Shown one piece after another: positions 1,233 through 5,345 of a DNA stretch of 5,345 bases. The stretch is from the IMG/VR virus record IMGVR_UViG_2639762987_000006. One strand, 5' to 3'. The position numbers and the translations under genes are program-made. Origin of the DNA: a virus. Its lineage: Duplodnaviria > Heunggongvirae > Uroviricota > Caudoviricetes. Under the pieces are notes generated by a model. It made no database searches, was not told the origin of the DNA, and saw only the letters and a list, made by a program, of their open reading frames with translations. The number at the start of each line of letters is the position of its first letter. The first letter of the stretch is position 1.

Positions 1233-1643
1233 ATGGATCAGGTAGTCATTTTTAAACAAATATTTGATAAAGTTCGAAACGATTTAAACTATCAATGGTT
1301 TTATTCTGAGCTAAAACGTCACAATGTCTCACATTACATTTACTATTTAGCTACAGATAATGTTCATATTGTATTAAAAAATGATAATACAGTGTTATTA
1401 AAGGGCCTAAAAAACATTGTGTCTGTCAAATTTTCAAAGGATAGGCATCTTATAGAAACGACCGCTAATAAGCTGAAATCCAGTGAGATCACATTTCAGG
1501 AATACAGAAGAAACCTTGCTAAAGCAGGAGTTTTTCGGTGGGTTACAAATATCCACGAACAAAAAAGATATTACTATACCTTTGATAATTCATTACTCTT
1601 TACTGAAAACATACAGAGCACATCACAAATATTTCCACACTAA
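1233..1643 (+). CDS. ydfO: DUF1398-family protein (YdfO/YbcV-like prophage protein), 136 aa; function unknown
   Basis: The tracked ORF (1203..1643) was trimmed to the ATG at 1233, which has GGAAGG 7 nt upstream; the product then begins [23 protein letters not shown]… Its sequence and 136-aa length match my recollection of the E. coli K-12 prophage proteins YdfO (Qin) and YbcV (DLP12), which lie beside lysis cassettes. The gene is visibly AT-rich compared with the lysis genes. Identity is from memory and needs a database check. Confidence 0.7.
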
Positions 1644-1651
1644 ACCATAAC

Positions 1652-1680
1652 GTCCGGTTTTTTCTACCCCAGCACCGGAC
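1652..1680. repeat. 7-bp inverted repeat GTCCGGT (1652..1658) / ACCGGAC (1674..1680) with a 15-nt T-rich loop, immediately downstream of the DUF1398 gene
   Basis: Seen in the sequence. The T-tract lies in the loop rather than 3' of the stem, so it is not a canonical intrinsic terminator. Confidence 0.3.
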
Positions 1681-1962
1681 TGGCTGACATAAAGAGCAAC
1701 CCCACGTTAAGTTGACGCGTTAATAACCCGGTGTACATCGTTTTTGATTATTCCCCCACACTCGCGCAGAAGGAGTTCCCCGTCAGGCTACAGTCATAAT
1801 TAATGCAAGAGTACAGCGACGATACAGCGCACAGAAATAAATCAGGTATCCATTGACTTCACAAAGACGGTGCATAGCATCGACAGGAGTAATTGCGTAA
1901 ATTGAACTCTTGGCACACTTTAGCCACAGGCGAATCTTCAGCGGATTATCCTTGGCCGGTTT

Positions 1963-2427
1963 TTATCTGAGGCATTGCTCTCGAATGTATAGCTGTGCCC
2001 CTTCAAGTTGTTTTTGCATTATTATCAGTCGCGCTCTGAGGGTGAAATAATCCCGTTCAGCGGTGTCTGCCAGTCGGGGGGAGGCTGCATTATCCACGCC
2101 GGAGGCGGTGGTGGCTTCACGCACTGACTGACAGACTGCTTTGATGTGCAACCGACGACGACCAGCGGCAACATCATCACGCAGAGCATCATTTTCAGCT
2201 TTCGCATCAGCTAACTCCTTCGTGTATTTTGCATCGAGCGCAGCAACATCACGCTGACGCATCTGCATGTCAGTAATTGCCGCGTTCGCCAGCTTCAGTT
2301 CTCTGACATTTTTGTCGCGCTGGGCTTTGTAGGTAATGGCGTTATCACGGTAATGATTCAGCCCCAGACTAAGCGCACCACAGGCCGCCAGCAGGGCAAT
2401 GATGACCACGCACAGTACGCGGTTCAT
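1963..2427 (-). CDS. Rz: Rz, spanin inner-membrane subunit (i-spanin), lambda type, 154 aa
   Basis: Tracked ORF. Its translation (…[18 protein letters not shown]…[82 protein letters not shown]…) closely matches lambda Rz as I remember it. It has an N-terminal transmembrane segment, and a second gene is embedded in its +1 frame. Confidence 0.9.
2025..2207 (-). CDS. Rz1: Rz1, spanin outer-membrane lipoprotein subunit (o-spanin), 60 aa, wholly embedded in the +1 frame of Rz
   Basis: Tracked [63 protein letters not shown]. It has a lipoprotein signal with lipobox VVGC, a proline-rich mature part, and a strong Shine-Dalgarno sequence (AGGAG, 7-nt spacer) inside Rz. This matches lambda Rz1. Confidence 0.88.
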
Positions 2428-2428
2428 T

Positions 2429-2527
2429 TCACCACCAGCGTATCTGACCGATGAAATAACCGGAGGCCATAATCACAAACACCAGCCAGATAAGAATGAA
2501 CTTCCAGGTGGATAATTTTTCAGCCAT
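2429..2527 (-). CDS. Candidate small membrane peptide, 32 aa ([32 protein letters not shown]), translationally coupled to Rz
   Basis: Hand translation; the ORF is below the size cutoff of the supplied track. It has an ATG start (2525..2527), GGGAGA 8 nt upstream, and one predicted transmembrane helix flanked by Trp. Its TGA stop (2429..2431) is one nucleotide from the Rz ATG (minus strand: TGAaATG). Whether it is expressed is unproven. Confidence 0.35.
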
Positions 2528-2602
2528 CACTCGAATCTCCCGAATCAGTTTGCTAAAATCAAACACACTTTCTCCTTTGACTTTTCCGGAGTCAGGAAAC
2601 AC

Positions 2603-2636
2603 AAAACCCCGCTTGGTGCCAACAAACGGGGTTTTT
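2603..2636 (-). terminator. Terminator-like GC-rich hairpin (stem CCCCG 2607..2611 / CGGGG 2627..2631, extended by A·T pairs) with T-tracts on both sides, lying between the endolysin and Rz
   Basis: Seen in the sequence. On the minus strand it follows the endolysin stop by about 90 nt and is followed by TTTTGTGTTT; on the plus strand it is followed by TTTTTACTTTT. It could terminate in either direction or act as an attenuator. Confidence 0.4.
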
Positions 2637-2725
2637 ACTTTTATTCACTTACGTTTCGCCAGTTCGCAGGATTTCATGTTATCCGCCCGCGTGGCCATGC
2701 CTTATTTTTCAGCAAAATATTCTGC

Positions 2726-3259
2726 TTATCTGTCGATACCCCAGCACGCCAGCGCGCTCTCCTGGTCACGACGGGATACCTGACCGTAGCAGTTGTTTGA
2801 ACGAATACGGCAGTCTCTGCCACCGTCCTTAATCCACCAGCGAATCGCCTCACACGCTCCCCTGCGATCACCTGCATTAATTCGTTTATAAAACGTCGAC
2901 GGGAAACACTTACTGGGACCAATGTTGTACGGACAGAATGACGCGATCCCCGCTTTCTGGGGTTCGCTCAATGGCACTTTGATGTTTTTCTCCACCCATG
3001 CCAGCGCCTTATCACGCTCAATGGCGTTGACCTGGTCGCATTTTTCCTTCGACAGTTTCATACCGGGAAAAACGGGTTTTCCATCCACCATCGTGGCCCC
3101 CCGACAGATGGTCCAGATGCCGGAACCATCGCGGTATGCCGTTGTGTGGTTACCCTCTTTTTCGTCCAGAAACTGGTCAAGTATCTGAGGAGCAGACGCG
3201 CCTGCAGCAATCAGCGCCAGAACAGCAGCTGACAGGGCGTATTTGATTTTTGCGCTCAT
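2726..3259 (-). CDS. R: Phage endolysin of the T4-lysozyme type (glycoside hydrolase family 24), 177 aa, with an N-terminal SAR or signal segment (RrrQ-like)
   Basis: Tracked ORF. The catalytic triad spacing E-x8-D-x5-T in …DEKEGNHTTAYRDGSGIWT… is that of T4 lysozyme. The N-terminus MSAKIKYALSAAVLALIAAGASAP is a weakly hydrophobic Ala/Gly-rich segment. It pairs with an S21-type pinholin upstream. Length and sequence match my recollection of E. coli prophage lysozyme RrrQ. Confidence 0.9.
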   Translation of the reverse strand: MSAKIKYALSAAVLALIAAGASAPQILDQFLDEKEGNHTTAYRDGSGIWTICRGATMVDGKPVFPGMKLSKEKCDQVNAIERDKALAWVEKNIKVPLSEPQKAGIASFCPYNIGPSKCFPSTFYKRINAGDRRGACEAIRWWIKDGGRDCRIRSNNCYGQVSRRDQESALACWGIDR

Positions 3260-3314
3260 GGATATTTATCAGGATGCTACCAATGAAAGATACCGGAAAG
3301 CCAACTGCAAAAAG

Positions 3315-3629
3315 CTAACAACCCGTAATCGAGTTATCAGAACTGTTAATTTTTATGGTATACCGCGCCTCTGAACAGGGGCGCGTTTCTGGCAACAGCT
3401 CGTCCCCTTCACATAACCCGGCAGCAACATCCAGGAAGACCTGTCTGATGCTCCTTCTGGCTGCTGCCTCATAAAACTCCAGCGCGGCACCTTCAACACG
3501 GTCCAGCGAGATGTCCAGGTCAAAAATTTCACCGTCAAAGCGTTCTTTGTCCCGTAACGCTAAAGTTACCGTAACTTTATTCTCAAAATTGCGGATCCCT
3601 TTCACAATCAGTTCATATTTTTGAGTCAT
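3315..3629 (-). CDS. ydfR: DUF1327-family protein (YdfR-like), 104 aa, lying between holin and endolysin; function unknown
   Basis: Tracked ORF. Its ATG at 3629 is 4 nt after the holin stop, with GGAGAG upstream. It has no signal peptide or transmembrane segment. Position and sequence match my recollection of YdfR in the Qin prophage lysis cluster. Confidence 0.75.
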   Translation of the reverse strand: MTQKYELIVKGIRNFENKVTVTLALRDKERFDGEIFDLDISLDRVEGAALEFYEAAARRSIRQVFLDVAAGLCEGDELLPETRPCSEARYTIKINSSDNSITGC

Positions 3630-3633
3630 TGAA

Positions 3634-3849
3634 TTACTCTCCCCGTGCAGCCTTACGCTTGTCTTCTTTAATCTTGAAATAAAGGTTTGTCAGGTACGTC
3701 AGCAGGCCAAATACCAGGCTACCCAGCACACCTATTGCTGCCCACTGTGAGGGCGTGACTTTATCGAGCAGCTGTAAAAACCAGTAGCCAGCACTGCCTG
3801 CGGAGGTGCCGTAGGCAATGCCTGTTGAAATTTTGTCCATGGATTTCAT
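3634..3849 (-). CDS. S: Class II holin / pinholin of the phage 21 S type, 71 aa, with a dual-start motif
   Basis: The tracked ORF (3634..3906) was trimmed to the ATG at 3849, which has GAGGTGAGG 5–6 nt upstream. The product [71 protein letters not shown] has two transmembrane segments and a basic C-terminus, and closely matches phage 21 S21 / EssD / EssQ as I remember them. The starts at Met1 and Met4 (MKSM) would give the antiholin and holin forms. Confidence 0.88.
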
Positions 3850-4100: not shown

Positions 4101-4496
4101 CTAACCTCGCATGTCAAAGCCAGATTTCTGAAAATCTCTGTAGACTTCCGGATTGTTGAAGGCCGGAAATTTGGCTTTATGAGCTGCGGACTTTATCGCT
4201 TCGCAATAGGCTTTATCACCGTTACTGGTAGATATTTTTAACGCCGTGCCATCCTGAGAGAATTCCATATGCAACCTGCATTTTTTCCCTTTCCAGTTAT
4301 GCGGCTCATCAAGTTTGGCATTAATTGCAGCTCTGATTCCCCGCGCTTGCGCCCCCCATTCATCCTGATCATCCCAGCGTCCTGAACTGCAACTACCTGT
4401 AGCAGTAGTTTTGTGGCAATCTGAAGGGTGTAAAGGTGTGCATCCCGCAACAAAACCGACCCAAAAAGTCAACATAACGATTTTCTTTAATCCCAC
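4101..4496 (-). CDS. Lipoprotein with a divergent TolA C-terminal (domain III)-like domain, 131 aa precursor
   Basis: Tracked ORF with a GTG start at 4496 (GAGGAG 6 nt upstream). The signal peptide MGLKKIVMLTFWVGFVAGC carries lipobox VAGC, and Thr at +2 predicts outer-membrane sorting. The C-terminal half (…KKCRLHMEF…GDKAYCEAIKSAAHKAKFPAFNNPEVYRDFQ…) shares its Cys pair and PEVY…FQ motif with the neighbouring TolA-III-like paralog. Confidence 0.75.
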   Translation of the reverse strand: MGLKKIVMLTFWVGFVAGCTPLHPSDCHKTTATGSCSSGRWDDQDEWGAQARGIRAAINAKLDEPHNWKGKKCRLHMEFSQDGTALKISTSNGDKAYCEAIKSAAHKAKFPAFNNPEVYRDFQKSGFDMRG

Positions 4497-4646: not shown

Positions 4647-5075
4647 TCAGGGTTTAAAATCCAGCACCCCATTTTGAAATACTTTATATACTTCCGGCGA
4701 AGGGGGGGCAGGTATATCAGCATTCTTTATCGCATTCATCGCTTCACGACATAAATCGAGGTCTCCACTTTCTCTTTTAACCTCCAGTAGAAGGCCATTC
4801 GGGGCCATATGCATTCTCAGTGTACACTCTTTTCCTGAATACTTACTCGCATCCCCGAACTGTTTTTCGATGGCGCTCTTGATTTGATGGGCATACAGAC
4901 GGATATCCTCACTAACATCAGAAGTACGTTCAGATGAACTCACATACTGTGTCTCTATTGCTTTATCGGAGTAATATGATGTACGGTCATGATAATTTGT
5001 CGATACAGCATCAGTGCACCCGATAATAATCCCACTAATAATCAACGTAAGAATTGATGCGCTACGAAAACCCAT
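4647..5075 (-). CDS. Lipoprotein carrying a TolA C-terminal domain III homolog, 142 aa precursor
   Basis: Tracked ORF with an ATG at 5075 (GAGGA 5 nt upstream). The signal peptide MGFRSASILTLIISGIIIGC carries lipobox IIGC, followed by a Ser/Thr-rich linker. The C-terminal ~85 aa (…QIKSAIEKQFGDASKYSGKECTLRMHMAPNGLLLEVKRESGDLDLCREAMNAIKNADIPAPPSPEVYKVFQNGVLDFKP) aligns closely with the C-terminus of E. coli TolA as I remember it (…QIKSAIESKFYDASSYAGKTCTLRIKLAPDGMLLDIKPEGGDPALCQAALAAAKLAKIPKPPSQAVYEVFKNAPLDFKP). Confidence 0.8.
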   Translation of the reverse strand: MGFRSASILTLIISGIIIGCTDAVSTNYHDRTSYYSDKAIETQYVSSSERTSDVSEDIRLYAHQIKSAIEKQFGDASKYSGKECTLRMHMAPNGLLLEVKRESGDLDLCREAMNAIKNADIPAPPSPEVYKVFQNGVLDFKP

Positions 5076-5134: not shown

Positions 5135-5345
5135 ACAGCGAATCAGATCAAATAAAACGCACATTTGTTAACATTTACACAAAGTCTGCGTGGGATATTC
5201 TGAAAGAATATCCATAATGTGGAGAGAATCTATTGAAGTGCATGGTGCCGGGTGCCTCCCGGTGAATTCAGTACCAGCACCTGAATCCGCGATTATCCCA
5301 TATACCTACTCGCTGATTGCCCCTCCGCACAGGGGGATTCACCAT

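Follow-up and report, generated by a model that had tools for sequence, protein, structure and literature searches.

A short membrane-peptide gene in the endolysin-Rz gap of a lambdoid prophage and the leader RNA that apparently travels with it

What is a very small open reading frame (ORF) doing in the gap between the endolysin and spanin genes of a temperate phage, and does it belong to lysis at all? The question is raised by a stretch of 5,345 nucleotides from a tailed phage (Caudoviricetes; IMG/VR record IMGVR_UViG_2639762987_000006; hereafter the window), in which 298 nt separate the lysozyme gene (R) from the i-spanin gene (Rz). A sequence-only reading had placed in this gap an untracked 32-codon gene for a membrane peptide that is translationally coupled to Rz. 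The ORF is present on the minus strand (2527 to 2429) and encodes exactly the peptide that was quoted; a Shine-Dalgarno (SD)-like GGGAGA lies 8 nt ahead of its ATG (2541-2536), and a single A separates its TGA from the ATG of Rz at 2427. With 36 ORFs of at least 20 aa overlapping positions 1500-3500, a length of 32 codons alone is not above chance, and it is the conservation of the ORF, not its mere length, that makes it significant.

Comparison with related phages points to a longer gene, which appears to move together with its own RNA leader between different sites in phage genomes. A portable, late-expressed, and tightly throttled cassette for an inner-membrane peptide is considered probable, with moderate confidence.

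Extent and conservation of the gene

The main product is probably a peptide of 45 aa encoded from GTG 2566, and the start at ATG 2527 was probably mis-set (Table 1). The main start is placed at the GTG because in-frame stop codons directly precede the homologous GTG or TTG in Rac-SA53 and several Pseudomonas prophages (loci L008, L104, L117, L099, and L101-103), because the GTG-started form aligns to positions 1-45 of the 45 positions of phrog_6632 (a family of unknown function; E=1.2e-29), and because residues 2-13 are conserved. The same family matches the relatives from Salmonella and Pseudomonas with E values of 1e-23 to 1e-24, and an AGGAGAA or GGGAGAA motif occupies the matching position ahead of the start in all family members. 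In tblastn searches against phage genomes, the similarity of the relatives extends well upstream of ATG 2527, and the motif (V/L)(F/I)DFSKLIRE(I/L)R.M is kept in Salmonella SPN3UB and SEN34, Escherichia Rac-SA53, and a Pseudomonas phage. An alignment of 25 diverse members has near-invariant positions at E10, R12, M14, and F23, the first two of which precede ATG 2527, and R9 is encoded by five synonymous codons (CGG, AGG, CGC, CGA, and AGA) among 30 distinct DNA versions. The residues upstream of the ATG are thus kept at the protein level, which contradicts an extent of 32 codons. In the window, the frame is open upstream of ATG 2527 as far as 2602, where another GTG would give a 57-codon form; this candidate was rejected, as the codon sits in the U-tract of the leader hairpin P1 (see below) and relatives have stops at this place.

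That the ORF is a genuine conserved gene is borne out by a frame that is intact across relatives, by a pooled dN/dS of 0.17 among 11 enteric members, indicating purifying selection, and by a leader-anchored survey in which 69 of 69 family copies are intact. The first scan for related loci had returned 80 near-identical E. coli loci of no use for divergence, and scans with a Pseudomonas query, of genomes, and anchored on the leader were used instead. A profile search covering 1.8 billion representatives (cut-off E<1e-3) returned 41 representatives, all of them small (32-86 aa). Relatives of 42-54 aa occur in prophages of Enterobacterales and Pseudomonas, and loci of the family are found in Escherichia, Salmonella, Citrobacter, Edwardsiella, Yersinia, Sodalis, Brenneria, Pantoea, Providencia, Trabulsiella, and Pseudomonas. 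Searches of Pfam (E up to 10, including DUF2730), NCBIfam, PADLOC, and PDB found no relative of the family. Among 5,426 complete E. coli genomes, ~2,100 have matches to the R-Rz spacer DNA (ORF, leader, and 3' end of R), with Shiga toxin (Stx) phages among them; part of the matches are without the ORF.

A chance ORF in a non-coding spacer, conserved through an RNA or DNA element alone, would agree with the abundance of short ORFs in the region and with the constraint that acts on part of the 5' end at the nucleotide level. Against this stand a frame of 44-51 codons that is unbroken in members from two bacterial orders, synonymous sites that are saturated in codons 14-45 (synonymous divergence, pS, 0.75; nonsynonymous divergence, pN, 0.22), the five Arg codons at R9, and a profile search that returns only small proteins of like length. 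By these sequence comparisons, a chance ORF is already contradicted and exceedingly improbable.

The proposal of a single-helix membrane peptide agrees with an AlphaFold2 model in which residues 4-44 form one continuous helix (pLDDT 87). Residues 1-22 are amphipathic with a net charge of +2, the best hydrophobic 19-mer comprises residues 24-42 (mean Kyte-Doolittle hydropathy 2.13), and RWW ends the peptide. The N-terminus is predicted to be cytoplasmic because of the positive-inside rule, and the C-terminus would lie just across the inner membrane.

The term "untracked" fits the gene only in part. The ORF is left unannotated in the window-identical genome of MS6198 and in phage H-19B, but it is known as phrog_6632 and as WP_000459345.1, the exact 45-aa product that PGAP annotates in some RefSeq genomes (L002) as "hypothetical protein" or "phage protein". 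Both entries represent the same family, and the databases are silent on its leader, its alternative contexts, and its tandem arrays. The gene is therefore real and catalogued as a hypothetical protein, with annotation that is inconsistent or absent.

The leader RNA and the contexts of the cassette

A leader of ~80 nt precedes the start codon in every family copy whose DNA was examined. It consists of an A-rich tract, the hairpin P1 with a U-tract, and the hairpin P2, which abuts the SD sequence. Across the family, the stem of P1 is G+C-rich and has 9-13 bp, whereas that of P2 has 4-5 bp. P1 reads as a terminator on both strands in a terminator scan; a G+C-rich stem-loop with a U-tract is present in the window (2635-2603) and in L111 (2931-2965), whereas the consensus terminator scan reported none in L006 and L008, where the T-run is shorter by the scan rule.

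Both hairpins are recovered de novo by minimum-energy folding, and both are supported by covariation. The inner 5-bp stem of P2 occurs as CCUUG/CAAGG, CCAUA/UAUGG, CGUUA/UAACG, and UGACU/AGUCA. When 16 leaders are aligned with MAFFT, 93.6% of the cells pair and 10 of the 18 pairs are changed on both sides (6 of 13 in P1); the observed covariation was reached by none of 500 shuffles, and controls with slid partners pair at 34-60%. A covariance-model alignment of 35 leaders agrees, and over both alignments P1 and P2 are 94-96% paired and the slid controls 34-61%. G-U pairs favour folding of the sense strand (25 vs 9), and the leader model (R1) gives one strong sense-strand match per locus and nothing comparable elsewhere. 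The predicted pairing probability of the SD sequence ranges from 0.28 to 0.96 among 18 leaders. No Rfam family matches the leader, which gave only sub-threshold, terminator-like hits.

Homology between copies in different contexts extends from ~10 nt before P1 to the stop codon, which defines a unit of ~215 nt (~2645-2429 in the window). Judged from these sequence boundaries, the gene moves between contexts as a self-contained cassette of leader and ORF. Copies at endolysin|spanin junctions are associated with four endolysin families (the lysozyme of the window, phrog_873, phrog_315, and phrog_181). Others lie at the baseplate V|W junction (SEN34, Rac-SA53, Yersinia, Pantoea, and E. coli 214-4), directly downstream of the tail assembly protein phrog_32 in Pseudomonas prophages, and among the tail genes of Pseudomonas phage YMC11/02/R656; in Sodalis, a tail fibre gene lies upstream of the copy. 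The cassette is thus an extra gene between genes that are adjacent in relatives, as is evident for R and Rz in Qin and DLP12, for V and W in SEN34 and Rac-SA53, and for the tail genes in Pseudomonas. Sakai prophage Sp17 is truncated by an IS element.

The varying contexts also bear on the relationship to Rz. Salmonella phage SPN3UB and a Citrobacter prophage show the same 1-nt spacing between the stop codon and Rz, and local translational coupling is plausible where this spacing is present. Coupling is not a defining property, since the gene also lies between baseplate or tail genes, and by its distribution the gene is not an Rz accessory by descent. The suggestion that the peptide might match one of the small proteins of K-12 prophages finds no counterpart in Qin and DLP12, where R and Rz overlap and leave neither gap nor insert; tblastn of peptide families A, B, and C gave nothing below E=0.1 in a search limited to these K-12 loci (YnfR, YnfQ, YnfS, YnfU, and YdfW were considered). 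In Sakai prophage Sp12 (L246 1612-2597, minus strand), the R-Rz gap holds an antirepressor and a 48-aa peptide of the third family described below (ECs_5732), without the leader. Sp12 and the window cease to be homologous precisely where the cassette has its 5' boundary (AAGTGAATAAAG).

The leader is not restricted to this family. A leader-anchored scan yielded 109 IMG/VR loci with enough sequence, in which the leader is followed by phrog_6632 alone (39 loci), by phrog_6632 and three further small single-helix ORFs (28), by a second family only (24), by the second and a third family (12), by two ORFs of the second family (2), by phrog_6632 and the third family (1), or by no ORF (3). The other families of the R-Rz gap (phrog_1115/4493/3246 and phrog_4906) share the leader and the slot with phrog_6632 and occur in tandem with it. 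They also share in part its C-terminal modules (IRWW and SPxLYGLAKLV) but differ in their N-terminal halves. In E. coli AR_0081 and E2348/69, four ORFs lie in tandem between R and Rz, the first of which is an unannotated member of phrog_6632; the E2348/69 cassette is located at CP059840.2 ~2,713,887-2,714,460. In the R-Rz gap of further E. coli prophages, other single-helix ORFs behind the same leader, of 37, 60, 43, 51, and 28 aa, are located at L122 1323-1436, L123 1096-1444 and 1450-1590, and L124 1171-1499 (all minus strand). The portable leader-peptide cassette and the variable peptide array between R and Rz appear to be undescribed so far.

Table 1. Features of the cassette and of the neighbouring lysis genes (window coordinates)
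Feature	Position	Strand	Remarks
Gene, 45-codon ORF plus stop	2429-2566	minus	GTG start 2566-2564, TGA 2431-2429; first residue read as fMet
32-codon ORF	2429-2527	minus	codons 14-45 of the gene; internal ATG 2527
SD sequence AGGAGA	2571-2576	minus	4 nt (2570-2567) ahead of GTG 2566; 5 nt from GGAG core (2575-2572)
Hairpin P2	2571-2599	minus	UUUCCU 2599-2594 pairs with AGGAGA 2576-2571, GACU 2593-2590 with AGUC 2582-2579; loop CCGGAAA
Hairpin P1, terminator-like	2603-2635	minus	13-bp stem, 7-nt loop; U-rich 2602-2595 after, A-rich 2645-2636 before
Candidate antisense promoter	2531-2559	plus	codons 3-12; -35-like TCGAAT 2531-2536, TG 2551-2552, -10 TAAAAT 2554-2559
EssD holin	3634-3849	minus	placed from L001 4735-4950
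YdfR-family gene	3315-3629	minus	
RrrQ-type lysozyme (R)	2726-3259	minus	WP_001274706.1; stop 90 nt upstream of P1
Rz (i-spanin)	1963-2427	minus	"lysis protein" WP_001082503.1; start 1 nt after the ORF stop
Rz1	2025-2207	minus	embedded in Rz

Expression, possible function, and rival explanations

Late transcription of lambdoid phages is antiterminated by Q, whose gene lies outside this window. Expression of the cassette by read-through of late transcription is inferred because a sigma-70 consensus scan detected no sense promoter-like sites in the window, L006, L008, and L111; in SEN34, only ~15 nt separate the upstream stop codon from the hairpin. The cassette sits in co-orientation in gaps between late-operon genes of unrelated temperate phages, in this case between endolysin and Rz. 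The terminator P1, the occlusion of the SD sequence, and the GTG or TTG start would each hold the level of the product down, and the presence of three output-lowering features suggests that dosage matters. Late in infection, the peptide might then assist the membrane step of lysis from within the cytoplasmic membrane, for example by affecting the timing of holin or signal-anchor-release (SAR) endolysin.

The first codons carry further signals. Synonymous divergence is only 0.30 in codons 2-13, compared to 0.75 in the rest of the gene. Each of the 30 DNA versions, which range from E. coli to Pseudomonas, has an extended -10 motif (TGnTAnnnT) on the opposite strand of codons 3-6. Without exception in this set, S5 is encoded by AGC, the third base of codon 4 is T whichever of its five residues (F, I, L, S, or Y) is specified, and R12 is the rare CGA, which provides a -35-like TCG 17 nt away, in contrast to the five codons at R9. 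The predicted antisense transcript would start at ~2565-2567, run over the start codon, the SD sequence, and P2, and end at P1 and a U-tract (~2650), where the conserved A-tract upstream of P1 forms a U-tract on the opposite strand; its predicted fold comprises a single-stranded 5' CUCCUU, a small hairpin, and the terminator. Another antisense promoter-like site found in the scan (2444-2473) is not conserved and was dropped as a feature of the family. E10 is likewise GAG in 30 of 30 versions, which places a GGGAG or GAGG 8-9 nt before the ATG of M14. This Met is kept in at least 90% of the members, but P0056 has an Ile at position 14, and an internal start is not universal. To judge from the sequences, the constraint on codons 2-13 could reflect an antisense promoter, an internal start, or both.

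There is precedent for small membrane proteins that act in lysis. The releasin gp25 of Mu (DUF2730) has an N-terminal transmembrane domain (TMD; N-out) followed by an acidic cytoplasmic domain (PMC9239132), Lcc6 of LambdaSo is a small single-TMD protein whose N-terminal TMD is followed by a cytoplasmic domain (bioRxiv 10.1101/2024.01.23.576932), and LysA2b of D29 is a small lysis accessory whose gene lies downstream of that for the tape measure protein (bioRxiv 10.64898/2026.08.27.747656). Like the mycobacteriophage proteins LysF1b and LysA2b, Mu gp25 and Lcc6 accompany pinholin or SAR-endolysin systems and are encoded in the lysis cassette or elsewhere. The phrog_6632 family is not homologous to Mu gp25, Lcc6, or LysA2b; its members are shorter than the first two and have the reversed layout, in which a cytoplasmic helix at the N-terminus precedes the TMD at the C-terminus. 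They do not qualify as releasins, given this reversed architecture and no Pfam match at E up to 10, and described holin and antiholin families gave no match in Pfam or NCBIfam.

A late accessory role in the membrane step of lysis is put forward tentatively, as a possibility that falls short of being probable, because the endolysin|spanin position recurs with unrelated partners, no prophage promoter was found, and published precedents exist. Several observations weigh against the account given above. Tail or baseplate junctions make up about half of the distinct contexts, so that position does not imply a role in lysis. Different types of holin and endolysin accompany the gene, and this speaks against a specific partner. 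Occlusion of the SD sequence is weakly predicted in some leaders (pairing probability 0.28-0.5), and some E. coli copies carry frameshifts (P0025, P0027, and P0031). A terminator upstream of Rz or baseplate genes should depress these genes in phages without antitermination, which is unexplained. The nucleotide constraint in codons 2-13 adds a layer, be it antisense promoter or internal start, that the account does not need, and data on expression, topology, or phenotype were found for none of the family members.

The signals in codons 2-13 are central to two rival explanations. In type I toxin-antitoxin systems, a cis-antisense RNA may overlap the translation start, as in symE/SymR, and structured leaders are found in systems of the hok/Sok type. 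By analogy, the product of the cassette would be a 45-aa membrane toxin silenced by a cis-antisense RNA of 80-85 nt that is ended by P1 read in reverse; the antisense RNA would silence read-through in the lysogen and be overwhelmed by the flood of late transcript. Support comes from the invariant antisense promoter motif and its codon choices, from the drop in synonymous divergence exactly over codons 2-13, from the conserved A-tract ahead of P1, and from the predicted fold of the antisense RNA. A small hydrophobic membrane peptide of 45 aa (type I toxins are under ~60 aa), an occluded SD sequence, and a non-AUG start would also fit, and the cassette resembles type I systems in its SD-hiding leader, the antisense promoter-like motif in the first codons, and the suitably placed terminator. 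Unlike type I systems, it lies inside late phage operons rather than standing alone, no promoter was found for the toxin mRNA, and the antisense RNA is itself a prediction. Moreover, the wobble pairs favour folding of the sense strand, AT-rich codons after the start together with the conserved internal SD sequence could explain part of the codon bias, and no matching small RNA (sRNA) was located in the Hfq-CRAC table of Sakai or the RIL-seq tables of enteropathogenic E. coli, for which the mapping is incomplete. The Hfq-CRAC peaks nearest to the lysis genes of Sp12 (EcOnc51 and EcOnc10) lie outside the R-Rz gap, with the remaining peaks judged by approximate coordinates, and the supplements of the Sakai small-gene paper contain no matching peptide. 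Control of this type is considered unlikely as a rival explanation, and it could also be an added layer on the late, throttled expression proposed above rather than an alternative to it. A combined scenario, in which antisense RNA and SD-hiding leader silence the unit until late transcription, the peptide is a hitherto unrecognised membrane factor that acts in lysis independently of the holin, and a 32-aa isoform may also be made, is decidedly improbable. The other explanation that draws on these codons is the original one, a 32-aa product translated from ATG 2527 via GGGAGA and coupled to Rz, or, in a weaker variant, 45-aa and 32-aa forms from one frame, as in two-start holin genes. The prevalence of M14, the SD-like motif formed by the invariant GAG of E10 from E. 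coli to Pseudomonas, the stop 1 nt from the ATG of Rz in the window, SPN3UB, and Citrobacter, and the 32-aa entries made by gene callers (P0022 and P0023) speak for it. The 32-aa form as sole product conflicts with the conservation of residues 2-13, the 45-position PHROG profile, and the stronger AGGAGA-N4-GTG site. P0056 has Ile in place of this Met, and Rz is not adjacent in the baseplate and tail contexts; this explanation is very unlikely.

A third possibility is that the cassette is a lysogenic-conversion moron, whose prophage-made peptide would protect the lysogen, for example by blocking the entry of superinfecting DNA at the inner membrane. Gp15 of HK97 reportedly acts in this way on the DNA of superinfecting phages. 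In the moron concept of Juhala and Hendrix, a gene with its own promoter and terminator is expressed from the prophage. Like the morons of HK97 (gp15, gp22, and gp23), the cassette is a small extra gene that is present or absent between conserved late genes, it occupies the same types of tail junction, and it encodes a small single-helix membrane protein; the copies in Pseudomonas are moreover flanked by terminators on both sides. Unlike classic morons, the cassette has a hairpin upstream and a structured start region. No sense promoter-like site was found in the four scanned loci, where only ~45 nt lie between terminator and start codon, and the hairpin of SEN34 leaves no room for a promoter after the upstream stop. 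A downstream terminator is present only in the copies of Pseudomonas. BLASTP (E up to 100) yielded no alignment with HK97 gp15, whose architecture is the opposite, the TMD being N-terminal, and PADLOC gave no match. A moron function is distinctly unlikely. The second terminator-like hairpin of the Pseudomonas loci (CACGCCGCCCAAGAGGCGGTTTTTT) follows the gene at ~3170-3200 in L104-L107, L117, and L118, so that these copies are bracketed by hairpins. The K|I gap of HK97 (L244 5561-5659, plus strand) contains an unannotated 32-codon ORF (MYTVGFGWIFVGIFIGLILWFFINRASVRANR) that by eye is like the N-terminal membrane half of gp15, with an annotated terminator downstream.

Neighbouring genes and implications

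The region around the cassette (window 1900-3300; a query of 1,401 bases) is 100% identical to a lambdoid prophage of E. coli MS6198 and 99.9% identical to enteroaggregative E. coli 55989. The N-terminus of the lysozyme looks like a SAR sequence by inspection, and EssD and the lysozyme may be a pinholin/SAR pair, to judge from similarity to phage 21. Upstream of the holin, two genes on the minus strand (~4101-4475 and ~4647-5075) are annotated as TolA or TolA C-terminal domain in the record of MS6198, which is identical; both could be morons that target the Tol system. A DUF1398 gene lies on the plus strand of the window, and a masked run of 61 N at 230-290 breaks the region that matches the DUF1441/terminase side of the prophage.

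Two observations concern sRNAs. The sequence at 5186-5345 (minus strand) matches the Rfam family STnc100 (RF02076) with 91 bits and is truncated by the edge of the window; according to a recent preprint, this family is common near the Pas sRNA genes of prophages. PasB, a published Hfq-dependent sRNA (NC_011601 1466260-1466305, minus strand), lies antisense in the gpI|gpJ gap, between tail assembly protein and gpJ, of E2348/69 prophage PP6 (L251 3257-3496), by a hairpin. It is placed like the cassette copies of Pseudomonas but is unrelated to the leader, whose model it does not match.

The practical gain is a corrected gene model with 45 codons and a GTG start. The leader constitutes a compact regulatory RNA element that has covariation support and no Rfam entry, and it shows how a very small gene can bring its own expression control into highly transcribed operons. 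If the combined scenario of antisense silencing and a holin-independent lysis factor were true, lambdoid phages, Mu/P2-like phages, and Pseudomonas siphophages would share this factor, and two or more other peptide families could take its place behind the leader. Lysis cassettes are usually viewed as a combination of holin, endolysin, and spanin, to which recent work has added small membrane proteins that are essential or set the timing of lysis. Should the peptide modulate the timing of lysis, burst size would be affected and, in Stx phages, the release of toxin as well.

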